A DNA stretch of 32,000 nucleotides from Pseudothioglobus sp. nBUS_23 (GTDB lineage Bacteria; Pseudomonadota; Gammaproteobacteria; PS1; Pseudothioglobaceae): positions 1,650,001 through 1,682,000 of the forward strand of contig NZ_CP179200.1 in the NCBI RefSeq assembly GCF_051201565.1, written 5' to 3'. Made by a program: the position numbers and the translations under genes. The number at the start of each line of letters is the position of its first letter. Positions within the stretch are counted from its first letter, which is position 1. Shown piece by piece: positions 9,671 through 29,018 of this stretch. Below the pieces are notes generated by a model that saw only the letters and a list, made by a program, of their open reading frames with translations, was not told the DNA's origin and did not search any database.

Positions 9671-10324
9671 ATGAATATTATTTTATTAGGACCCCCTGGT
9701 GCTGGAAAAGGCACTCAGGCGGCACATATTTGTGAAAAGTTTAATATACCTCAGATTTCGACTGGTGATATGCTGCGTGCAGCAGTCAATGCTGGCTCAC
9801 CGATAGGCCTGGAAGCAAAAAAAACAATTGATGCTGGGAATCTTGTATCTGATGAATTGATTATTTCTTTGGTTAAAGAAAGAATTCATTTACCTGATTG
9901 TCACAATGGTTATTTACTTGATGGATTTCCTAGAACCATTAATCAAGCCAATGCTCTTAAACTTGAAGGCATAAAAATCAACTATTGTGTTGAAGTGAAA
10001 GTTCCTGACGATGATATCGTCGAGCGAATGTCTGGTCGTCGTGTTCACTTATCTTCCGGAAGGACATACCACATTAAATTTAATCCACCTCAAGAACCCA
10101 ACAAAGATGACATTACTGGAGGTGATCTAATTCAGCGTGTTGATGATAATGAAGAGATCGTCAGAGGTCGACTTAAAATTTACCATAAACAAACTGAACC
10201 ATTAGTCAAGTACTATCGGACTGACGCAGATAATCCCGAAACTGGCACTAAATTCATTGCTATTAATGGCGTTGGCACTCTGGAAGAGGTTAAAGATAGA
10301 ATTTCAACCGCATTAGTAAGTTAA
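9671..10324 (+). CDS. adk: Adenylate kinase
   Basis: 217-aa ORF with P-loop [10 protein letters not shown] and a long LID segment ([13 protein letters not shown]) lacking Zn cysteines. It lies 15 nt after the PFK gene. Confidence 0.95.
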
Positions 10325-14074: not shown

Positions 14075-14668
14075 TTATTCCTGACCAAACCTGGCAACTC
14101 TCTCTGGGTCATCGAGCTTAGGTCGTGAAAAAAACTCATTTACCATAGGTATAAAAAACTCCAATGTCTTTGAATCGTAATTGGGATCAAAACAGTTTTG
14201 ATCATAATCATGACAAAACCTTACTGCCTCAGCATACCAAGGGTGGTCAATAAATGCCTCTCTGGCATTTCTATCACCGCCTGAGTGATGAGCGTAATAG
14301 TACATCTGAAATACTCCATGATGCTTAATAATCCAATATATTTTCTCTGAAACAAATGGCCTTAGAATAGCAGCGGCCATTTCAGAATGCGAGTATGGTG
14401 CAAGAGAGTCACCAATATCATGAAATAAAACTGCCATCACCATTTCTAAATCCTCTTTAGCTAATAGTGCTCTAGTTGCACCTTGGAGAGAGTGTTCTAA
14501 TCGACTAATTTGATAGCCTGATAGACTTGAATCCAAAGCCTTTAGAGCATCAATAAGCCTAGAAGGTAAGTCTTGAACATATTGAGATTCTAGTGTATCA
14601 AGGAAGGCATACTCTTCCGCTGTGCCATCCTCCATGCAAATAAAATTGACTTTATCCATGGCTAACAT
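14075..14668 (-). CDS. HD-domain protein with PhnZ/MIOX-like ligand pattern (possible mixed-valent diiron oxygenase)
   Basis: 197-aa ORF with ordered H...HD...H...H(H)...D residues: LEHSLQ (H59), FHDIGD (H83/D84), SHSE (H94), KHHG (H116/117), CHDYD (D154/156). The local motifs resemble PhnZ (..QLEHSLQ.., ..LLHDLGH..) as recalled. Function is not established. Confidence 0.55.
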   Translation of the reverse strand: MLAMDKVNFICMEDGTAEEYAFLDTLESQYVQDLPSRLIDALKALDSSLSGYQISRLEHSLQGATRALLAKEDLEMVMAVLFHDIGDSLAPYSHSEMAAAILRPFVSEKIYWIIKHHGVFQMYYYAHHSGGDRNAREAFIDHPWYAEAVRFCHDYDQNCFDPNYDSKTLEFFIPMVNEFFSRPKLDDPERVARFGQE

Positions 14669-14686: not shown

Positions 14687-15283
14687 CTAAATTCTTTTAG
14701 CGCTGTCCTTTAATAATCCGGCGACATAGTGTGAAAATGAATGTCTGATCATCATAAATATATTCTTTTTTTCACGATAGACAAAAACTGGTGCTTGTCC
14801 AAAAGTAGTTGAAACAGCTTTTCCATCTTGAAGGGACCCTTCGAGATCATAACTCATCCATCGACTCAATAGGTCAGTGGTTTTATCGCCTCTAAACTCA
14901 AGAGTTCCATATGCAGCTGAATTGTTTGTGATAGAAATACCAAGAGGAAGTTTATTAGTCTTCTCTTCAATTTCCAACATTTGTTGAGCGCTTAGGGAGA
15001 TCCAAAATTCATCTGGACTGACCCAAAAGCATTTTAAATCTGAATCGCCAAAGGTCGCTAGTAATGGCCCAGGAAGCTCTATATTAAAAATATCTTTTGC
15101 TACTTTGATATTCATTTTAGAGTCTTTAGATGTTCTTAAAATGAGTAGAGATTGATCTATCACTTCTTGACAACTGACGCCTTCCTGGTTGACTAAAAAG
15201 CCTTCTTCGTCAATTAGTGTATTGAAAGTTGATCTGAATTCTGGTTCCATATTCTCATGACTACTATTTTTACTCATTGCCAT
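14687..15283 (-). CDS. soxG: Sarcosine oxidase, gamma subunit
   Basis: 198-aa ORF in the canonical last position of soxBDAG, overlapping the soxA stop by 14 nt. The call rests mainly on context and size. Confidence 0.8.
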   Translation of the reverse strand: MAMSKNSSHENMEPEFRSTFNTLIDEEGFLVNQEGVSCQEVIDQSLLILRTSKDSKMNIKVAKDIFNIELPGPLLATFGDSDLKCFWVSPDEFWISLSAQQMLEIEEKTNKLPLGISITNNSAAYGTLEFRGDKTTDLLSRWMSYDLEGSLQDGKAVSTTFGQAPVFVYREKKNIFMMIRHSFSHYVAGLLKDSAKRI

Positions 15284-18200
15284 CTACCTTTTCTCCATTA
15301 GTATCATAAAAGACACTACTTGAAACTTCACAAGGTATCTCCTTAAGGCCCTGCTTTTCCTGAACAATCTTCACAAGGACAGTCTCAGACATTTTTGAAA
15401 GTCCACCTTTAAGTTGAGCTAATGCGATTGATCTTCCAAGAGCTGGGCTGTAGTAGCTTGAAGTTACATAACCAACAGAGACGCCCTTATTATTAATAAT
15501 ATGTGCTCCCTCAGGAAGCACAACCTGATCATCTTTGGTTAGAAGGCCAACTAATTGCAATCTATCTTCCGATTTTAGTGCGGATATACTAAATGAACGA
15601 CGCCCAATATAAGAAAAAGGCTTATTCTTTGCTAGAATCCAGTTCATATTAACATCCATCGGCGTCATTGAACCGTCTGTATCCTGCCCCACTATAATGA
15701 AGCCTTTTTCAGCCCGCAAAACATGCATTGATTCAGTTCCATATGGGGTGATGTTCCATTCCTTACCTTCACGAGCAACCTCATCCCATATAAAACGCCC
15801 AAAGTTTGCTTCAATATTTATTTCATAAGCCAGCTCACCAGAAAAGCTGATTCTCATAATTCTTGCTTTAACACCACAGACAGTTCCCGGGCGCCACTGC
15901 ATAAACTTAAAATTTTTGCTGTCAAAATCAACATCTGAACATAACTTTTTCATCAATTTGCGCGCATTCGGCCCAACCACAGCAACTGTTGAAAACTGAT
16001 CTGTTACACTACTTAGATGCACATCTAAATGACTCCACTCAGTTTGAAGCCACATTTCTAGTGTCGAATATACACTTGCAGCACCACCTGTTGTAGTTGT
16101 CATAATAAAATGGTTATCATTAATGCAAGTTGAAACACCATCATCAATAATCATTCCTTTCTCATTGCACATGAGCCCATAGCGACAGCTACCTGGTGCT
16201 AACTTCATCCATGCATTGGTGTAGACTCTTGATAAAAATTCTCTAGCATCCTTACCTTGAATATCGATTTTTCCAAGAGTTGAAGCATCCATCATTCCGA
16301 GTGAAGTTCTAACAGCACGACACTCTCTATTAACGGCTTGATGCATGTCCTCACCATCTTTTGGATAATACCATGGCCTATACCACTGCCCAACCACTTC
16401 AAATTCAGCACCACTATTGACATGTGAGTCGTGAATTGTTGTGAACCTTTGTGGATCGAAAAAATCCCCTAATTCTCTTCCAGCCATTGCTCCAAAATCA
16501 ACACCTGTATAAGCTGGTCTAAATGTAGTCGTGCCAACTTCAGACATAGGGGCATCAAGAAATTCTGCGGCTACAGCAATACCATTAATATTTCCAGTTT
16601 TTCCTTGGTCAGTTCCAAAGCCCATTGCAGTATATCTCTTAATATGCTCTATTGATTGGTATCCCTCTCTAATAGAAAGTGAAACGTCCAAAGTAGTGAC
16701 GTCGTTTTGAAGATCAATAAAAACTTTTGGCTTATTGAGAATTTCAAGTGGAGTAAAAAACTGATCAACATTGAAATAATTGCGGCTTTGGTTAGTGAGT
16801 TCTTGTGGATTGACTTTATTATCTTCACCCAGAGAGAGCAGAGTTAATTGTGCTTTATTCTTTGCATCAGCTATTGCATCTTTCCAGAACCCTATAGAGT
16901 TTACAGCTCCACATAACTGTCTATTCTTGCGATCTTTTTGTGCCAAGAATGATTGTGAATTTTCATCAAAATATGTTTTTCCACCGCAATGACAATCTAA
17001 ATGCACTACCGGATTAAATCCTCCTGACGTTGCTAATAAATCGCAATTTAAAGTTTGAGTATCTCCAGTCAACCTCCATTTTGACTTCCAATGTGGAGGT
17101 TTAGCTTGCATTTCCACCTTAGAGATTTCAATACCAGTAACTCTACTTTTGCCTTTTGCTTTAAGAATAGCAAAACCTTGAAAAACTTCTATTCCTAAAT
17201 TTCTTGCCTCTAAAACAATGTCACTTTCGACGCCAGATGCTCTAACGTCAATGACCTTAGACTCAACATTATGTTTTCTTAAATCAATTGCGGTATTGTA
17301 AATACTGTCATTATTACCATATAAAACAATTTCTTTTCCTGCAACTACATTGAATTCGTTTACGTATCGTCTTACAGACTGACTTAACATAATATTTGCC
17401 AAATCATTTGTCTCAAACAACATAGGGCGCTCATGCGCACCTGTCGCCAAGATGACTTCTTTAGTCCTAATCTTATGAAGTACTTTTCTTGCAGACTGAA
17501 CGCCCTCTTGAATCATTGACTGGCCAGTTCCAATAGTCTGCAATACTTCAATATAGTTATGGTCATACCATGCATAAGCAGTTGCAGATGTTAGAATTTT
17601 TAGCCTAGAGCCTGCTTCATCTCTATACTTTAAAAGTCTTTCTTTAGTTTCTTGATACCAAAGAGTTGCAGTTTGATCAGTTGTAAATTCATTGGTTAAT
17701 TCACCACCTAAATTCTCTCGCTCATCTACCAAGATAACTCTGGCTTTCTTTGAACTAGAAAGAACCTCAAGTGCGGCGCTCATTCCTGCAGCACCACCGC
17801 CGATTACGAGCACCTCGGTATGTTGAAAAATATGATCATAAACATCTTCGTCAATCTCTGAAGGCGCTTTTGAGAAGCCTGATAATGACCTGAGACGATC
17901 CTCAACAATTGACCAAACCTTCTGCTTGATAAAGGTTTTATAGTAGAAACCAGCTGGCATAAAACGATGCAGTGGCTTAATCATTGCACGAAAGTCAATC
18001 GAATGCGGGTTGCTTGAACTGACCGCACTTAAGCCATCATAAAGCATGATTTCAGTTGCCTTCATATTAGGCGTATATCTGCCACCAATTTCAAGCGAAA
18101 CTAGGGCGTTTGGCTCCTCAACTCCAGCACCAATAATGCCTCTCTTTCGTCCGTATTTGAAACTTCTTGCATAATATAAAACATTGTTGGCAATTAGGGC

Positions 18201-18308
18201 TGACGCTAAAGTATCGCCTTTGAAACCCTTATAGGCTTTATTGTTAAAAACGAAGCTTAAGGGCTGGTTGTAATCGATAAGGCTGTTTGAATGTTTCTCT
18301 ATTCTCAT
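15270..18308 (-). CDS. soxA: Sarcosine oxidase, alpha subunit
   Basis: 1012-aa ORF with a dinucleotide fold (VLVIGGGAAGMSAALE) and a C-terminal GcvT-like folate-binding/aminomethyltransferase domain. The ATGA overlap with soxD is seen in the sequence. Confidence 0.93.
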   Translation of the reverse strand: MRIEKHSNSLIDYNQPLSFVFNNKAYKGFKGDTLASALIANNVLYYARSFKYGRKRGIIGAGVEEPNALVSLEIGGRYTPNMKATEIMLYDGLSAVSSSNPHSIDFRAMIKPLHRFMPAGFYYKTFIKQKVWSIVEDRLRSLSGFSKAPSEIDEDVYDHIFQHTEVLVIGGGAAGMSAALEVLSSSKKARVILVDERENLGGELTNEFTTDQTATLWYQETKERLLKYRDEAGSRLKILTSATAYAWYDHNYIEVLQTIGTGQSMIQEGVQSARKVLHKIRTKEVILATGAHERPMLFETNDLANIMLSQSVRRYVNEFNVVAGKEIVLYGNNDSIYNTAIDLRKHNVESKVIDVRASGVESDIVLEARNLGIEVFQGFAILKAKGKSRVTGIEISKVEMQAKPPHWKSKWRLTGDTQTLNCDLLATSGGFNPVVHLDCHCGGKTYFDENSQSFLAQKDRKNRQLCGAVNSIGFWKDAIADAKNKAQLTLLSLGEDNKVNPQELTNQSRNYFNVDQFFTPLEILNKPKVFIDLQNDVTTLDVSLSIREGYQSIEHIKRYTAMGFGTDQGKTGNINGIAVAAEFLDAPMSEVGTTTFRPAYTGVDFGAMAGRELGDFFDPQRFTTIHDSHVNSGAEFEVVGQWYRPWYYPKDGEDMHQAVNRECRAVRTSLGMMDASTLGKIDIQGKDAREFLSRVYTNAWMKLAPGSCRYGLMCNEKGMIIDDGVSTCINDNHFIMTTTTGGAASVYSTLEMWLQTEWSHLDVHLSSVTDQFSTVAVVGPNARKLMKKLCSDVDFDSKNFKFMQWRPGTVCGVKARIMRISFSGELAYEINIEANFGRFIWDEVAREGKEWNITPYGTESMHVLRAEKGFIIVGQDTDGSMTPMDVNMNWILAKNKPFSYIGRRSFSISALKSEDRLQLVGLLTKDDQVVLPEGAHIINNKGVSVGYVTSSYYSPALGRSIALAQLKGGLSKMSETVLVKIVQEKQGLKEIPCEVSSSVFYDTNGEKVDGNE

Positions 18309-18589
18309 GACGCGTTCTCGCTATCTATTTCCTCAAAAGTCGCAACCTCGATAACTTCGTGACTAATGGTAGATCTTTTAACTAAAAAATATTTTCGACA
18401 CCCAGAAGTATGTACCCATTGCTCCCAGTGGTCACCTTTTAAATTAGTCCTATAAAATACATAATCAGCCCATTCTTCATCACCTAAGGCTTCAGGATTT
18501 TCAGGTCTTGCTATAAACGCTTCTCCTGCAGGTGAAAATTCATTTTGGTCTCTAGGTTCTTTGCAATATGGACAGTGAATTGAAAACAT
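18305..18589 (-). CDS. soxD: Sarcosine oxidase, delta subunit
   Basis: 94-aa ORF with zinc-ligand pattern CPYC...HTSGC. Its size and position between soxB and soxA are canonical. Confidence 0.9.
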   Translation of the reverse strand: MFSIHCPYCKEPRDQNEFSPAGEAFIARPENPEALGDEEWADYVFYRTNLKGDHWEQWVHTSGCRKYFLVKRSTISHEVIEVATFEEIDSENAS

Positions 18590-18608
18590 AATATTACCTT
18601 CAAATAAA

Positions 18609-19859
18609 CTAGTGGGCTACGCCAGCAGCGCCATGCTCATCAATCAGAGCACCCGTTGTAAAGCGATCAATATGAAATGGCACAGCTAAATCATGCTGCT
18701 TGTCTTGAGCAATTGTATGAGCAAAAACATTGCCTGACCCAGGAGTGGCCTTAAAGCCCCCTGTACCCCAACCGCAGTTGAAATAAAGCCCCTGAACCTT
18801 TGTTGGGCTAATCACAGGACAGGCATCAGGACAGACATCCACAATTCCTCCCCACTGACGATTCATACGAACTCTAGAAAAAATTGGAAATAATTCAAGA
18901 ATTGCTGCAGCACAATGTTCGACTATTTTCGCACTGCCACGTTGAGCATAAGAATTATAACCATCAATACCAGCGCCAATAACTAGGTCGCCCTTGTCGC
19001 TCTGACTAACATACCCATGAACAGCATTGGACATGACAACAGTATGGAGAATTGGCTTCATTGCCTCCGAAACAAAAGCTTGTAATGGATGACTTTCTAC
19101 AGGTAATCTCAATCCAGCCATTCTTGCTATGACAGATGAGTGGCCAGCACTAACGCATCCTACACGGTCTGCTAATATATCGCCCTGAGTAGTTTTAACT
19201 CCTTTGACGCGACCCTCTTCAACTTCAATATCAATTACTTCACAGTTTTGAATAATATCGACACCAAGGTTTGATGCAGCGCGAGCAAACCCCCAGGCTA
19301 CGCCATCATGTCGAGCAACCCCTGCACGAGCCTGAAAAGAAGCACCCATAATTGGATACCTGACATTTTTCGATGTATTAATTATTGGAATTTGTTCTTT
19401 GATTTCTTTGTGGTCAACAACTACAGCATCGACACCATTTAAAACATTTGCATTGACTCTTCTTTCAATATCCCTCATGTCCTGGAGTGTATGTCCAAGA
19501 TTGTATACACCTCTTTGACTAAACATAACATTGAAATTTAAATCCTCACTTAATCCCTCCCAAAGTCTCATTGAGTGCTCATAAAGACTGGATGCTTCAT
19601 CTCTCAAGTAATTGGATCTAATAATTGTCGTATTTCTTCCAGTATTACCTCCACCTATATAACCCTTCTCAACTACAGCTACATTAGTAATACCGCACTC
19701 TTTAGCCAAATAGTAAGCTGTAGCAAGACCATGTCCGCCACCGCCAATAATAATGACATCATATTTTGATTTAGGCTTTGATGATGGTATCGCCTTATCC
19801 CAGTCCTGGTTAGCTAATCCTGCTTTTAATAGCGAATACCATGAATATTTTTTTTGCAT
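18609..19859 (-). CDS. soxB: Sarcosine oxidase, beta subunit
   Basis: 416-aa ORF with FAD fold [19 protein letters not shown] and DAO-family layout. It ends in ...HGAAGVAH, typical of heterotetrameric SoxB. Confidence 0.93.
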
Positions 19860-19880: not shown

Positions 19881-20987
19881 CTATAAATCAAGCACAATAT
19901 CACTTGTTGGATAAGAGCAACAAGTCAAAATATATCCCTCTTGTTCATGCGACTTTAAAAGTCCGCCTTGAGCATCCATTTCAACAGTTCCATCTAGCAT
20001 TTTTGTTCGACAAGTTCCACACAAACCTTGTGAGCATGCAAATGGAACAGTAATACCTTGTTTTTGAATAGAAACTAAGATACTTGTATTGCTTCCACAA
20101 GGCAAAACATCGCCGCTCTTTTTAAGCGTGACATTATATTCATTTATTTCACTTTTTGTAACTTTATGTTCCGGCAATTCGGCATTGATTGCCATATTTT
20201 TTTGAGCAGTTGAACTCTCTATATCAAAGCTCTCTTGGTGGTAGAAATTCATATCAAAAGCAGCTGATTCAAGTATTTTTTTCACATTCTGCATATAAAG
20301 CTCTGGTCCACAACAATAGATTTCTCTTTGCACAAAATCTGGAACAAGCTTGAGGAGCATCTCGTGGCTCAAAAAACCAGTGGGTCCTTGCCAACCCTCA
20401 CTAGAAACATCACAAACATAATGGCTTTTCAAATCACTTTGGTTTGATTCATAAAATTCAAGCTCGTCTTTTGAAATCAAATCCTTTTCAGATTGTGCAT
20501 TATGAACAAATGCAATATCCACATCGATTGAAAGATCATAAAAATATCTTATCATCGAGAGCATTGGAGTAATGCCACTTCCCCCTGATAAAAACAAAAT
20601 TTTAGGCTTTGGCTTATCTAGTGCTACGCTGAAAGAACCACCGATATCAAGAGCATCAACACAGTCACCAACTTTCAAATTATCGTGCATCCAGTTTGTC
20701 ACAACACCCTCAGCCATTCGTTTGTTTGTAATAGTAATGGTGTTAGGTCTTGTTGGAGTTGATGCAATAGTGTAAGTTCGCATCACATCATTTCCATCAA
20801 TTTTCAGAAAAAGGGTTGTGTGCTGCCCTGGTAAAAATTGAAACCAAGCATCCTTCTTCGATTTAAAGGTAAAACTTTTTACATTATGTGTTTCATCTTT
20901 TATATGAATACATTCCAGCGGAGAAACATCTCCCGTCCATCGAGCAAGGCCCTCTATATTAATGTTTGGAAAGACTAATTCGTTCAT
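19881..20987 (-). CDS. FNR-type flavin reductase fused to a C-terminal plant-type 2Fe-2S ferredoxin (GbcB/BmoB-like oxygenase reductase)
   Basis: 368-aa ORF with flavin-binding RTYTIAS, NAD(P)H motif LSGGSGITP and a C-terminal CSQGLCGTCRTK....C 2Fe-2S cluster motif. It lies 21 nt upstream of soxB on the same strand. Confidence 0.8.
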   Translation of the reverse strand: MNELVFPNINIEGLARWTGDVSPLECIHIKDETHNVKSFTFKSKKDAWFQFLPGQHTTLFLKIDGNDVMRTYTIASTPTRPNTITITNKRMAEGVVTNWMHDNLKVGDCVDALDIGGSFSVALDKPKPKILFLSGGSGITPMLSMIRYFYDLSIDVDIAFVHNAQSEKDLISKDELEFYESNQSDLKSHYVCDVSSEGWQGPTGFLSHEMLLKLVPDFVQREIYCCGPELYMQNVKKILESAAFDMNFYHQESFDIESSTAQKNMAINAELPEHKVTKSEINEYNVTLKKSGDVLPCGSNTSILVSIQKQGITVPFACSQGLCGTCRTKMLDGTVEMDAQGGLLKSHEQEGYILTCCSYPTSDIVLDL

Positions 20988-21206: not shown

Positions 21207-22103
21207 TTATGGCATTGGAATGTGGTGTTTTTTTCGAGCATAGACTCCCTGCATAATGATCGCAAATAAAATTGCTAACCCTCCAATCAACGTATTTCTT
21301 GTTGGGACTTCATGAATTCCAAGAACTGGAAGCCATGCCCAAAAAATACCCAATACAACTTCAAGCAGAGAGAGCATGACGAGCTCTCCACTAGGCAGGT
21401 ATTTTGCACCCAGCCCATACAATATTAGACCAATACCAACAACAAGACCGTGTGTCATGCTGATACCAATATTAGCTGATGGCATCTCAAAGCCACTACC
21501 AGTTAAAAGAATAAGAATTGTTGCCCAGATCATACAAAAGAATCCAGCAAGAGCAGGGGTTAATAACTTAGGAACCTCAGGGTTCTTTCTGATCGTAATG
21601 GTATATATAGCAAAACCTAGAGCTACAAAAAATCCGTAGATAACGCCGATGATGGTTGCTGACTTATCAGTATCCCAAACCATTATGGTAATGCCTATCG
21701 CTACAATGAGCATATTAAGTAGTGTGCTTTTACTCAGTCTCTCGCCAAGAATAAGGTATCCCAAAAATGCTGACAAAACTGGGGACACGGCAAGCATGAG
21801 CAGAGTGATTGCGACTGTGGTTGTAGTTAATGCATAAATCCAACCAAAGAATGTAACAGACATAACAAGACTACCAATAAGGCTCCATGAATCTATTCTC
21901 TTGAAGGTCTGGAAAAAGTTCCTTCCTTCCCTAAAAAGAACAAATATGAGTATGACTGAAGTTATGATTAAACCTCTGTATAGCAAATACTGCAGCCTAA
22001 AACTTTCGGCATCTTCGAGATATCTTACGAGTGGCGCTCCAAAGCTCCAGATAACACCGCTTACAACAACAAGAAAAAAACCCAGTAAATAGCTATTCTT
22101 CAA
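21207..22103 (-). CDS. DMT-superfamily (EamA-type) permease
   Basis: 298-aa, roughly 10-TM hydrophobic protein with the duplicated EamA-like layout. The start read from the sequence is TTG (caa 22101-22103), so its exact position is uncertain. It is divergent from the hydantoinase gene. Confidence 0.8.
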   Translation of the reverse strand: MKNSYLLGFFLVVVSGVIWSFGAPLVRYLEDAESFRLQYLLYRGLIITSVILIFVLFREGRNFFQTFKRIDSWSLIGSLVMSVTFFGWIYALTTTTVAITLLMLAVSPVLSAFLGYLILGERLSKSTLLNMLIVAIGITIMVWDTDKSATIIGVIYGFFVALGFAIYTITIRKNPEVPKLLTPALAGFFCMIWATILILLTGSGFEMPSANIGISMTHGLVVGIGLILYGLGAKYLPSGELVMLSLLEVVLGIFWAWLPVLGIHEVPTRNTLIGGLAILFAIIMQGVYARKKHHIPMP

Positions 22104-25884: not shown

Positions 25885-25925
25885 ACTAGAGACAACAAAT
25901 TTAGCTCTATTAATAGGAGACAACT

Positions 25926-26789
25926 ATGAAAACAATTAACCTAAGCCCAGAACCCAATGACGCTGAAATTAGACGAGCAATGAAGCCAGTCATTTCTTAT
26001 CCTATTGATAATCTGCCAGCCTTTGATCAAGATTTTTATATAAATGCCAGTTCAAATATGGATCTCGTGGAGTCCATCATTATTCCCCCAAGAGATGCAA
26101 AAACTTTTGAAGTTCCGGCTGGATACTTTTTTCGAATTATTAGTCGAGAAGGCCCACAGGTCGGTGATTTAAATCTATGGCATAAGAATAATATGAATGA
26201 ACGATTCTTCAGTGGCAAAACACGAGCGCTTTACGGGACTCATGTAAGCACTGGTGATAGACTTTATTCAAACCTGCCATTTCTAAGACCGATGGCCACT
26301 ATTACTCATGACACTTTGGATTGGTATGGTTACGATGATGATGGTGGTAGCGTCCATGATGTCATTGGAACTCGTTGTGACCCTTATACCCATGTTGCTC
26401 TTAATAGTGAGGAGTACCATTACTGTTGTCACTCTAACTTATGCAGGGCACTTTCATCTCATCAACAAAAACCAATTAATGAAATTGAGCATCTTGTTCA
26501 TGATGTACTTAACGTCTTTATGTGCACTGGATTTACCAAAGATACGCATCAGTATTTTATGAAAGCTAGTCCAGTTCGCCCCGATGACTATATAGAATTC
26601 TTTGCCGAAATTGATCTTGTTTGCGGGTTGTCAGCATGTCCAGGTGGTGATTGCAGCTCCAGTCACTCGAGTGATGCGGCTGCATGCTATCCCCTGCAAG
26701 TTGAGATTTTTAAACCAGTTGAAGGGGCAGTAAAACAATGGTCACCCCAAGCAATAAATAAGTACTCAAGAAATCACGGCTCCAGTTAA
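25926..26789 (+). CDS. DUF1989-family protein (family of urea-carboxylase-associated proteins / carboxyguanidine deiminase subunits)
   Basis: 287-aa ORF with DUF1989-like blocks IPPRDAKTFEVPAGYFFRII..EGPQVGDLNLW, HDVIGTRCD, CHSNL, LNVFM and DYIEFFAEIDLVCGLSACPGGD. An AGGAG sits 6 nt upstream of the ATG. The gene starts 41 nt after the hydantoinase stop. Confidence 0.75.
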   Translation: MKTINLSPEPNDAEIRRAMKPVISYPIDNLPAFDQDFYINASSNMDLVESIIIPPRDAKTFEVPAGYFFRIISREGPQVGDLNLWHKNNMNERFFSGKTRALYGTHVSTGDRLYSNLPFLRPMATITHDTLDWYGYDDDGGSVHDVIGTRCDPYTHVALNSEEYHYCCHSNLCRALSSHQQKPINEIEHLVHDVLNVFMCTGFTKDTHQYFMKASPVRPDDYIEFFAEIDLVCGLSACPGGDCSSSHSSDAAACYPLQVEIFKPVEGAVKQWSPQAINKYSRNHGSS

Positions 26790-26818: not shown

Positions 26819-27685
26819 ATGGAGAACTTAAAGGGCATTTTATTTATGATTCTCGCTATGGCAGGTTTTGCATTTGAGGATCTTTTTATTAAATTGCTCT
26901 CAACTTATTTTCCAATATCAGAAGTAATAATAATTCTTGGGTTTACTGGTACATTTATATTCTTCATTATTGCACTTCTACAGAATGCACCAATTATTCA
27001 TAAAGATTTATTAAATAAACACGTAATAATTCGAACAATTTGTGAACTCTTAGGAGCAGTTTTTTTTGTTACAGCAATCGCTTTAACACCTCTTTCATCT
27101 GCCACAGCAATTCTACAAATATCGCCATTATTAGTAACAATTGGTGCTGTAGTATTTTTTAAAGAAAAAGTAGGTTGGAGGCGTTGGACAGCTGTATTTA
27201 TTGGCTTTATAGGTGTATTATTGATTGTTCGTCCTGGCTTCGAGGGATTTATGCCAGCATCAATATTTGCAATACTTGGATCCGTCTTTCTTGCAGCTCG
27301 AGATTTAGCAACTCGCGCTATGCAAGTTAAACTTCCTTCGGTAACAATAGCACTATATGCCTTCATAGCTTTTGGAATCTCAGGCATTCTAATCATTCCA
27401 TTTAACTCGCCAATGGTACTTCCTACATCTAATCAAATTATTTATTTTATTGGCGCATCTGCCTTTGGTGTAATTGCTTATTACTCTCTTGTTATCTCTT
27501 CAAGAATTGGTGAAATGTCAGTTATATCTCCTTTTAGATATTCAAGGATAGTTTTTGCTATGTTGCTTGCAATTATCATTCTTGATGAGAATCCAGATGG
27601 CTTAACTCTAATTGGAGCTTCGATTGTAGTAGCCTCAGGACTTTATACATTCGTTCGTGAAACTGTTTTAAAAAAATCACAATAA
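26819..27685 (+). CDS. DMT-superfamily (EamA-type) permease
   Basis: 288-aa, roughly 10-TM protein with two EamA-like halves. It starts 29 nt after the DUF1989 stop on the same strand. Confidence 0.8.
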   Translation: MENLKGILFMILAMAGFAFEDLFIKLLSTYFPISEVIIILGFTGTFIFFIIALLQNAPIIHKDLLNKHVIIRTICELLGAVFFVTAIALTPLSSATAILQISPLLVTIGAVVFFKEKVGWRRWTAVFIGFIGVLLIVRPGFEGFMPASIFAILGSVFLAARDLATRAMQVKLPSVTIALYAFIAFGISGILIIPFNSPMVLPTSNQIIYFIGASAFGVIAYYSLVISSRIGEMSVISPFRYSRIVFAMLLAIIILDENPDGLTLIGASIVVASGLYTFVRETVLKKSQ

Positions 27686-27812: not shown

Positions 27813-29018
27813 ATGAACATGCCAAGAACAATTCACATTCCTAATGGTGAGAATATAGTTCACACATTTAGTGATGAAGAATACCAAAATAGACAAAGAA
27901 AACTAAGGGCACATATGGCTCAAAGCAATATAGACACAGTAATCTTTACCTCTATACATGGCATCAATTACTACAGTGACTTCCTTTACTGTTCTTTTGG
28001 GAGGCCATACGCACTGGTTGTTACTCAAGATAAAGTAACTTCGGTGACAGCAAATATTGATGGTGGTCAGCCATTCAGAAGAACGTTTGGAGACAACCTG
28101 GTTTATACAGACTGGCAAAAGGATAGCTTTTTTTACGCACTACAGCAGATTGTGAATAATGGTGGAAAAATCGGGATTGAGTTTGATCATATCACCAAGG
28201 AGCGTCTAGATAAACTCCAGGCTGCATTTGACCAATCACAATTTATTGATATTTCTGTTGACTGCATGAAAATGCGATCAGTTAAATCAGATGAAGAAAT
28301 AGCTCACATTATTCAGGGTGCTAACGTTTGTGATATTGGTGGGGCGGCTCTTGTTGAAGCGATTAAAGAGGGCGTTCCTGAGCACGAAGTGGCTCTTCAC
28401 TCTACTCAAGCTATGGTTCGAGAAATTGCTAAACGCTATCCTCACTCAGAGCTCATGGATACCTGGACTTGGTTTCAGTCTGGAATCAATACTGATGGTG
28501 CGCATAACCCTGTGACAACAAGAAAAGTTCAAAAAGGAGACATCCTCAGTCTTAACTGTTTTTCAATGATTGCGGGCTACTATGTTGCACTTGAAAGAAC
28601 CCTGTTTTATGACCATGTTGATGATGAGTCATTGAGGCTTTGGGAGATCAATGTAAAAGTTCATGAAGAGGGGATGAAACTAATCAAGCCAGGGGTTGCT
28701 TGCAAAGATATAGCTCTTGAACTTAATAAAATTTTTGAAGAGTATGGCTTGCTTGAAAGTAGAACATTTGGCTATGGCCATTCATTTGGTGTTCTATCTC
28801 ATTACTATGGCCGTGAAGCAGGCGTAGAACTGAGAGAAGATATCGATACCGTCCTTCAAAAAAATATGGTCGTATCCATGGAGCCTATGATCATGATTCC
28901 TGAAGGTAAACCTGGTGCCGGAGGCTACAGAGAGCATGATGTGATGGTTTTGACTGAGGACAGTGCATATGACATCACTAAGTTTCCGTTTGGGCCAGAG
29001 CATAACATTATCAAGTAG
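27813..29018 (+). CDS. Creatinase (creatine amidinohydrolase), M24 pita-bread fold
   Basis: 401-aa ORF nearly collinear with Pseudomonas putida creatinase as recalled: YSDFLYCSFGRPYALVVT, ANIDGGQP, MDTWTWFQSGINTDGAHNPVTTRKV.KGDILSLNCF.MIAGYY.ALERTLF, RTFGYGHSFG.LSHYYGREAG.ELREDIDTVL, GAGGYREHD. Confidence 0.92.
   Translation: MNMPRTIHIPNGENIVHTFSDEEYQNRQRKLRAHMAQSNIDTVIFTSIHGINYYSDFLYCSFGRPYALVVTQDKVTSVTANIDGGQPFRRTFGDNLVYTDWQKDSFFYALQQIVNNGGKIGIEFDHITKERLDKLQAAFDQSQFIDISVDCMKMRSVKSDEEIAHIIQGANVCDIGGAALVEAIKEGVPEHEVALHSTQAMVREIAKRYPHSELMDTWTWFQSGINTDGAHNPVTTRKVQKGDILSLNCFSMIAGYYVALERTLFYDHVDDESLRLWEINVKVHEEGMKLIKPGVACKDIALELNKIFEEYGLLESRTFGYGHSFGVLSHYYGREAGVELREDIDTVLQKNMVVSMEPMIMIPEGKPGAGGYREHDVMVLTEDSAYDITKFPFGPEHNIIK

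Follow-up and report, generated by a model that had tools for sequence, protein, structure and literature searches.

Two chemistries are known among proteins of the DUF1989 family, the deimination of carboxyguanidine and the demethylation of trimethylamine N-oxide (TMAO). The first is that of CgdAB, which is named carboxyguanidine deiminase and acts after an ATP-dependent carboxylase; the second is that of Tdm, the TMAO demethylase (PMC12560246). A further subfamily, typified by SPO0365 (PDB 3DI4), has been represented by a crystal structure since 2008 and counts thousands of members from marine and soil bacteria, but no function is assigned to it, and one source gives it only the name 'uncharacterized protein YcgI (DUF1989 family)'. 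The protein considered here is a single-copy member of this subfamily, encoded in a 32,000-nucleotide (nt) stretch of Pseudothioglobus sp. nBUS_23 (contig NZ_CP179200.1, positions 1,650,001 to 1,682,000; hereafter the window). Its gene directly follows a gene for a fused hydantoinase A/hydantoinase B (HyuA/B), most likely an ATP-dependent 5-oxoprolinase. This coupling is recurrent among DUF1989 loci, though not obligate, and gives a testable lead to the function of the subfamily.

The open reading frame (ORF), which runs from ATG to TAA and encodes 287 amino acids (aa), lies at 25926..26789. The first-pass annotation of this DNA had described it as one DUF1989-type ORF with a good ribosome-binding site, and both statements were borne out: AGGAG stands 6 nt before the start codon, and a proper profile search with PF09347 gives an E-value of 1.6e-44 and 152 bits (cut-off 27) over profile positions 2–168 of 168. 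DUF1989 is the sole Pfam domain of the protein. PDB entry 3di4_A aligns with residues 9–285 (277 residues, ungapped) at 65% identity and an E-value of 1.1e-123, and the traits of the 3DI4 subfamily are present, namely the N- and C-terminal extensions, the GGDCSxxHSSD segment and full-length collinearity. In a neighbour-joining tree the protein groups with 100 orthologues. An AlphaFold2 model from the single sequence reached a pLDDT of 36.7 and an alignment-based model a mediocre 63.6; with the latter, Foldseek returns 3di4 as its top match and recovers 3DI4, 3ORU and 3SIY, with no remote fold relatives. A relationship of the cyclophilin-like kind to PxpB/PxpC may exist. The subfamily is matched by at least 8000 database proteins and, in a library clustered at 50% identity, by 176 clusters below 1e-30, and its sequence conservation is high across phyla (61–70% identity). 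Judged from its sequence, the ORF encodes a genuine, single-copy and typical member of the SPO0365/3DI4 subfamily, which was already known and is without assigned function.

The earlier claims of a single copy, and of no carboxylase, biotin carrier or allophanate hydrolase anywhere in the 32 kb, likewise hold in Pfam scans and tblastn searches. When tblastn was run with the ORF, with UAAP1 and UAAP2, and with a Tdm-like and a Klebsiella sister protein, the matches for DUF1989 were confined to positions 26025–26786 of the window. No biotin carboxylase, carboxyltransferase, biotin-lipoyl, PxpA or amidase-signature protein was found by Pfam among the ORFs scanned (28 of the 32 listed ORFs of at least 100 aa, the other four lying inside or overlapping others). 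The window gave no tblastn matches to urea carboxylase, biotin carboxylase, carboxyltransferase or PxpA, and holds no allophanate hydrolase. Being a DUF1989 singleton is nevertheless ordinary, the single-copy type forming a large family. The initial premise that characterised DUF1989 proteins come as paralogue pairs beside a carboxylase is correct for CgdAB and otherwise incomplete: Tdm has also been characterised, and singletons such as SPO0365/3DI4 are common.

The Cys- and His-rich blocks noticed at first reading (HDVIGTRCD, HYCCHSNLC and LSACPGGDCSSSH) are all found in the translation and contain residues that are invariant in 38 homologues of 68–95% identity. Among these invariant residues are C151, C168 and C238. 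An active-site alignment was made of nine sequences, comprising the ORF, orthologues, a 50%-identical sister clade, UAAP1 and UAAP2 of Pantoea, and an Acinetobacter Tdm-like protein. The Cys triad is common to UAAP2 and the Tdm-like protein, and UAAP1 lacks all three residues. The corresponding three cysteines make up the zinc site of Tdm, and this site is common to 3DI4, 3ORU and 3SIY (PMC12560246); C151, C168 and C238 are predicted to be zinc ligands. All nine sequences agree at five further positions (D129, H144, D145, N171 and N196), and all except UAAP1 keep D81, while H165 is aligned with a His of the Tdm-like protein that equals Tdm H276 (numbering per PMC12560246). A different set (D152, H169, H192, D193, C200, D242 and C254) is conserved in the subfamily and the sister clade and absent from UAAP2 and Tdm, and C167, C243 and H247 are additionally conserved within the 3DI4 clade. 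These subfamily-specific residues probably shape a pocket of a different kind, or a second site for metal. The four cysteines outside the triad (C167, C200, C243 and C254) are invariant in the 38 homologues, and C167 and C243 are replaced in the sister clade; the four may make up a second metal site or disulfides. In the Pantoea pair, which is of the CgdAB type, only UAAP2 has the intact triad, and Tdm consists of one intact DUF1989 domain and one DUF1989-like domain without it. Since each of these systems has one triad-bearing partner or domain, a single copy with an intact triad is plausibly catalytically competent by itself.

The stop codon of HyuA/B is 41 nt upstream of the DUF1989 start, and 29 nt separate DUF1989 from a downstream gene encoding an EamA/DMT-family transporter. 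This spacing and the lack of terminator-like sites between the three genes suggest that they are co-transcribed, so that the EamA gene at 26819..27685 is probably part of the same transcript as DUF1989. Its position 3' of DUF1989 is kept in close relatives.

The fused HyuA/B is most likely an OplAH-type (eukaryote-type) ATP-dependent 5-oxoprolinase rather than an N-methylhydantoinase. Several features point to this assignment. The subunits are separate in hydantoinases and typically fused in oxoprolinases (PMC8453981). In one relative (L099) the TRAP binding protein upstream of HyuA/B matches DctP7/DctP6 of Bordetella pertussis (2pfy, E 6e-96; 2pfz, E 3e-85), which were crystallised with pyroglutamate, have a dissociation constant of 0.3 µM for this ligand and stand near a eukaryote-type 5-oxoprolinase (PMC3454389, PMC13274462). 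On a Sulfitobacter plasmid a HyuA/B orthologue (58% identical) comes after a D-glutamate-cyclase-like gene and a TRAP transporter. Orthologues of 55–60% identity occur on 899 plasmid records, and some of these are annotated as 5-oxoprolinase. The best PDB match of HyuA/B is a 1288-aa chain named N-methylhydantoinase by its depositors (~38% identity in the N-terminal third). The reading taken from that name was demoted in view of the fused architecture, the pyroglutamate-type TRAP and D-glutamate-cyclase contexts of the orthologues, and their frequent occurrence without DUF1989. A 5-oxoprolinase assignment weakens the idea of a route through creatinine, N-methylhydantoin and N-carbamoylsarcosine, which keeps some likelihood all the same. 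Compared with a creatinine cluster working via N-methylhydantoin, the window has a creatinase and soxBDAG; its HyuA/B is fused instead of two-subunit and groups with orthologues in 5-oxoprolinase contexts, although the chain that it matches best bears the N-methylhydantoinase name, and neither an amidohydrolase-type deaminase nor an isochorismatase-type amidase is present.

Neighbourhoods were surveyed at 80 genome loci, with HyuA/B sought within 10 kb. HyuA/B followed by DUF1989 occurs throughout the Thioglobus/SUP05 clade (~25 of the 80 loci), down to a DUF1989 identity of 64%. The closest loci are from Candidatus Thioglobus/SUP05-type gammaproteobacterial single-cell and metagenome genomes and show full synteny at 84–90% protein identity. 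Full synteny, at 75–99% protein identity, is also seen in contig CALKDH010000023.1 of a metagenome genome whose label, 'uncultured PS1 clade bacterium', is a name from the Alphaproteobacteria; this contig is probably mis-binned or mislabelled. In deep-water relatives the genes lie on one strand in the order [TRAP DctPQM]-HyuA/B-[MarR]-DUF1989-GMC oxidoreductase-creatinase-reductase-soxB-soxD-soxA-soxG. The choline-dehydrogenase-like GMC gene overlaps the DUF1989 stop by 4 nt (L096, 10861..12540; L099, 7861..9540; and ~20 other relatives), which suggests translational coupling in these deeper-branching members of the SUP05 clade. In the window the GMC gene is absent and EamA directly follows DUF1989 instead. 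A GMC gene adjacent and convergent to DUF1989 is found in Pseudolabrys (L070), and also in L072.

A second type of 5-oxoprolinase-like context is found on plasmids of Rhizobium and Sinorhizobium. There, under a GntR regulator, lies an operon of PxpA, carboxyltransferase, biotin carboxylase with a biotinyl domain, and DUF1989 (L084, 2881..7861; L085; L089; L091), in which the DUF1989 orthologue (59–64% identity) is the last or second-last gene. The carboxyltransferase is a fusion of CT_C_D and CT_A_B of the PxpB/PxpC (KipI/KipA) type. In R. etli NXC12 it and the biotin carboxylase are missing from the plasmid gene table, and tblastn detects both. DUF1989 thus adjoins a split biotin carboxylase/carboxyltransferase, with PxpA and without allophanate hydrolase, and by its composition the operon looks like an uncharacterised biotin-linked relative of prokaryotic 5-oxoprolinase or of split urea carboxylase. 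Because homologues of PxpB/C are reported to bind the biotinylated biotin carboxyl carrier protein (BCCP; bioRxiv 10.1101/2025.10.28.685139), the rhizobial system may be biotin-dependent. The initial description of the gene as lying outside any carboxylase context is therefore right for the Thioglobus-type lineage and wrong for these rhizobial orthologues. On a Klebsiella plasmid, a DUF1989 gene of the sister clade is ~5 kb from a cluster of NRAMP, PxpA, D-glutamate cyclase, carboxyltransferase and biotin carboxylase, and one orthologue, in Gemmobacter, lies next to PxpA and a carboxyltransferase. Within a single rhizobial clade of the neighbour-joining tree the contexts are mixed, some genes being adjacent to HyuA/B, some in the PxpA operon, and one preceding DoeA-like M24 and M20 hydrolases. 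Since both contexts occur among DUF1989 orthologues, the partner switches between the two known, non-homologous systems of 5-oxoprolinase type.

Amidine or guanidine hydrolases of the M24 family also recur as neighbours of DUF1989. A creatinase homologue (56% identity) stands beside DUF1989 in Leucothrix, and DoeA-like M24 proteins are encoded near it in Shinella and in relatives within the Thioglobus clade. In Shinella an M20 amidohydrolase gene comes after DUF1989. Ehu-type ABC transporters recur at DUF1989 loci as well and are upstream of the gene in Bradyrhizobium. A possible link to ectoine synthase (EctC) was dropped; an ectC-like gene is beside DUF1989 in one Rhizobium locus and recurs in no other. 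The SAR116 loci (L047, L060, L061, L065 and L069) have a setting of their own, in which the orthologue is inside genes of the protocatechuate branch, with MBL-fold and alpha/beta hydrolase genes upstream and a gene of the carboxymuconolactone-decarboxylase family and two protocatechuate 3,4-dioxygenase subunit genes downstream. This setting fits none of the hypotheses on a nitrogen compound considered here.

A number of observations weigh against a functional reading of the HyuA/B linkage. At approximately 55 of the 80 loci HyuA/B is absent within 10 kb, and the neighbours differ from one locus to the next. These loci are from Sneathiella, Kiloniella, SAR116, Rhizobiales, Desulfobacteraceae and Acidimicrobiales, and the neighbours include DUF2207, pca genes, GntR with DAO, and tRNA-related genes. 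Clustering and Pfam scans show that no universal operon partner exists across the 55 non-Thioglobus loci. Most of the HyuA/B orthologues on the 899 plasmid records are, conversely, without DUF1989. Rhizobium sp. NZLR1 has the pair in convergent orientation, and the same locus stands without DUF1989 on a related plasmid. In relative L002 (85% DUF1989 identity) the whole 3.6-kb HyuA/B has been deleted, leaving at ~9890..10000 a short remnant in which the N and C termini are fused (MNI...KTPGxxGFGK), and the DUF1989 gene that follows is intact. The literature searched contains no functional or biochemical study of the SPO0365/3DI4 subfamily, and SPO0365 receives a single mention in it, as an unconfirmed comparative-genomics candidate (PMC8319176). 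The deletion in L002, the NZLR1 arrangement, the loci without HyuA/B and the many HyuA/B genes without DUF1989 establish the coupling as recurrent and not obligate. In addition, 5-oxoprolinase forms glutamate without the help of another enzyme, so that the link may reflect a shared regulon only. Because most family members have unrelated neighbours, inference from one neighbourhood is weak, and this tempers the original proposal that the substrate is linked to the genes nearby, which the creatinase and sarcosine oxidase island otherwise favours.

The wider neighbourhood (Table 1; G+C content of the window, 37.8%) is, from its gene content, a small organic-nitrogen catabolic island of a marine bacterium. 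The match of the creatinase gene product to 1CHM, the creatine amidinohydrolase of Pseudomonas putida, indicates a bona fide creatinase; a CysQ gene follows. The soxBDAG genes (14687..19859, minus strand) are those of a heterotetrameric sarcosine oxidase, and glycine-cleavage genes are present at the far end of the island. With these three components the island can, as predicted from its genes, carry creatine to glycine and one-carbon units. The HD-domain gene directly after soxG has the same position in distant relatives (e.g. L096, from 20295), which suggests a conserved link to the sarcosine oxidase operon. The second EamA gene is conserved in relatives, some of which carry 2–3 tandem copies. 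The flavin reductase resembles GbcB, the glycine-betaine monooxygenase reductase, and neither the window nor the collinear clusters of relatives hold a Rieske oxygenase partner for it. There are no urea-degrading genes in the window, and profile scans of it detect neither an amidohydrolase-type (creatinine) deaminase nor an isochorismatase-type amidase (N-carbamoylsarcosine amidase). An Rfam scan gives no family at gathering score anywhere in the window, and no guanidine riboswitch.

Table 1. Coordinates of the DUF1989 gene and surrounding features, numbered from the first nucleotide of the window
Feature	Position	Strand	Evidence or remark
HD-domain protein, directly after soxG	14075..14668	-	
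soxG	14687..15283	-	Pfam SoxG
soxA	15270..18308	-	Pfam SO_alpha_A3, GCV_T
soxD	18305..18589	-	94-aa ORF, corresponds to SoxD in relatives
soxB	18609..19859	-	TIGR01373 676 bits, above cut-off
FNR-type flavin/[2Fe-2S] reductase resembling GbcB	19881..20987	-	NF058606 (GbcB) 340 bits, under cut-off of 500; Pfam
Second EamA transporter, divergent from HyuA/B gene	21207..22103	-	PF00892
Fused HyuA/B, 1208 aa	22258..25884	+	Pfam Hydant_A_N, Hydantoinase_A, Hydantoinase_B
Ribosome-binding site AGGAG	25915..25919	+	Read from sequence; 6 nt before DUF1989 ATG
DUF1989 protein, 287 aa, SPO0365/3DI4 subfamily	25926..26789	+	PF09347 E 1.6e-44; 3di4_A 65% identical
EamA/DMT-family transporter	26819..27685	+	PF00892; 29 nt downstream of DUF1989
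Creatinase (creatine amidinohydrolase)	27813..29018	+	PDB 1chm_A E 1.8e-188, full length; Pfam Creatinase_N, Peptidase_M24

Based on these observations, the DUF1989 protein could be a stand-alone zinc-dependent hydrolase that breaks a C–N bond and releases ammonia, as a deiminase or amidase, and that feeds or works with an ATP-dependent lactam-opening enzyme. It would be co-transcribed with HyuA/B and the DMT transporter, inside an island degrading creatine, sarcosine and glycine. By analogy with CgdAB, a zinc-bound water would attack the amidine, guanidine or amide carbon and ammonia would leave. A similar zinc-water mechanism operates in Cys-ligated zinc deaminases. The proposal of hydrolytic ammonia release rests on the naming of CgdAB as a deiminase that follows an ATP-dependent carboxylase, and we infer the order of steps and the kind of substrate as well. 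The compound acted on would be small, polar and nitrogen-containing but not carboxyguanidine; it is probably a cyclic or acyl amidine, guanidine or amide, with creatinine and an imino or amide relative of 5-oxoproline as candidates. Hydrolysis would give ammonia and a lactam or hydantoin, whose ring the neighbouring ATP-dependent HyuA/B would then open. This general picture is put forward tentatively, with a little less than an even chance of being right, and any single named substrate is far more doubtful. A substrate other than carboxyguanidine had been proposed at the outset, and that much is reasonable, the protein scoring far below the CgdAB cut-offs and the window holding no paralogue, carboxylase or guanidine riboswitch. 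A different amidino, guanidino or ureido compound could serve, and the range should be widened towards relatives of 5-oxoproline. A bolder form of the proposal would make the SPO0365-type proteins a third functional class of DUF1989, zinc deiminases or amidases that produce lactams or hydantoins from cyclic amidino, guanidino or amide forms of dissolved organic nitrogen (creatinine, for example, or a pyroglutamate relative of imino or amide type) for opening by ATP-dependent 5-oxoprolinase-type enzymes, replacing creatinine deaminase-like steps non-homologously in abundant marine SUP05/Thioglobus heterotrophs and in rhizobia. In this extended form it is rather unlikely.

The strongest competing explanation is that the neighbourhood is incidental and that the protein is a self-sufficient enzyme for some common metabolite unrelated to 5-oxoproline, creatine or sarcosine. 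The unrelated and mutually different neighbours at most sampled loci would follow naturally from this, the identity of 61–70% across phyla is what a context-independent function would be expected to show, and L002 has lost HyuA/B and retained DUF1989. If the linkage is incidental, the window holds one more member of a known uncharacterised family. However, the tight co-directional linkage persists across the old Thioglobus/SUP05 clade, a second and non-homologous 5-oxoprolinase-type system has been recruited independently into a DUF1989 operon in rhizobia, and M24 amidinohydrolases recur beside the gene; an incidental neighbourhood seems unlikely on balance, while deserving serious attention. 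It is also conceivable, though with a smaller probability again, that the protein acts after the ATP-dependent enzyme in the manner of CgdAB. It would then use an activated (N-carboxylated or phosphorylated) or ring-opened intermediate supplied by HyuA/B or by the PxpA/carboxyltransferase/biotin carboxylase system, for instance in an N-carbamoylsarcosine-amidase-like step after opening of N-methylhydantoin, or in coupling ATP use to amide hydrolysis. In the CgdAB precedent DUF1989 comes after a carboxylase, and in the rhizobial operons its gene directly follows that for biotin carboxylase/BCCP. A caprolactamase of the HyuA/B family needs bicarbonate, and in a two-component oxoprolinase from Pseudomonas the hydrolysis component is separate (PMC8453981). 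In creatinine clusters already described, hydantoinase occurs together with creatinase and sarcosine oxidase (PMC8864220), and the window encodes neither N-carbamoylsarcosine amidase nor creatinine deaminase. Such a role is harder to reconcile with the fused HyuA/B of this orthologous group, which are overwhelmingly without DUF1989 and resemble ordinary 5-oxoprolinases with glutamate as product, or with Shinella, where an M20 amidohydrolase already follows DUF1989.

A lyase or demethylase activity like that of Tdm, splitting an N-oxide or N-hydroxymethyl (hemiaminal) compound into an amine and formaldehyde, would suit the methylated-amine theme of the island, with its sarcosine oxidase containing a folate-binding subunit, its GbcB-like reductase lacking an oxygenase, and its glycine-cleavage genes. 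The zinc triad and H165 are in common with the Tdm-like protein, and in deep-water relatives the overlapping gene is choline-dehydrogenase-like. That GMC gene is missing from the window, however, the protein scores 25.9 bits against a cut-off of 1100 for the Tdm model NF053776 and carries no fused GCV_T domain, and the rhizobial PxpA/biotin carboxylase operon does not suggest demethylation, all of which makes this activity improbable. The protein might, lastly, be a canonical component of carboxyguanidine deiminase whose paralogue and guanidine/urea carboxylase are encoded elsewhere in the genome, given that it belongs to the same Pfam family, has the same zinc site as UAAP2, and that the search for partners spanned the 32-kb window. 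This is very hard to credit when the protein is 26% identical to UAAP2 and 18% to UAAP1, with scores far under the equivalog cut-offs, when the extensions at its two termini are particular to the subfamily and some of its invariant residues are absent from UAAP2, when the window contains no guanidine riboswitch, and when orthologues are single-copy in nearly all of 100 loci examined.

Should a stand-alone C–N hydrolase coupled to lactam opening prove correct, it would add a step to the harvest of nitrogen from small cyclic compounds by abundant ocean heterotrophs and would throw light on the PxpA–PxpBC–biotin carboxylase operons of rhizobia, which are uncharacterised. The recurrence with both unrelated types of 5-oxoprolinase and with M24 amidinohydrolases reduces the candidate substrates to a small number of purchasable compounds.

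Among the described systems, CgdAB (UAAP1/UAAP2, TIGR03425/TIGR03424) has the same Pfam family in common with the window protein, and its UAAP2 subunit has equivalents of the Cys triad and of D81, H144 and D145. Both are associated with an ATP-dependent enzyme, which is the basis of the analogy for hydrolytic release of ammonia. The window protein nevertheless fails both models by a wide margin (TIGR03424, UAAP2, 40 bits against 284.7; TIGR03425, UAAP1, 21.1 against 205.95). CgdAB is a pair of paralogues, one of them without the Cys triad, whereas the window protein is single-copy and has extra segments at both termini. In Pantoea, UAAP1 and UAAP2 are encoded side by side next to urea/guanidine carboxylase, and the window has neither; CgdAB genes are often, though not obligatorily, under guanidine riboswitches, in contrast to the window. 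Tdm resembles the window protein in its Cys3 zinc site, in the His (H276) and in its setting in methylated-amine catabolism. It differs in having its DUF1989 catalytic domain fused to a GcvT-like domain, in its degenerate N-terminal DUF1989-like domain, and in being a formaldehyde-releasing lyase and not a hydrolase. As far as sequence comparison can tell, the window protein is neither a CgdAB-type subunit nor a TMAO demethylase. TM1040_0329 (PDB 3ORU/3SIY, 234 aa) has the same fold and Cys positions at ~22% identity, but it is without the ~50-aa N-terminal and 45-aa C-terminal extensions; a separate 3DI4-type copy is borne by the megaplasmid of strain TM1040. The nearest counterpart is SPO0365 of Ruegeria (Silicibacter) pomeroyi DSS-3, a structural-genomics entry described as 'DUF1989 family protein'. 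It comes from another organism and another neighbourhood, and function has been assigned to neither protein; it is of the same length and architecture as the window protein, is 65% identical to it, and keeps every one of the motifs first noticed here.

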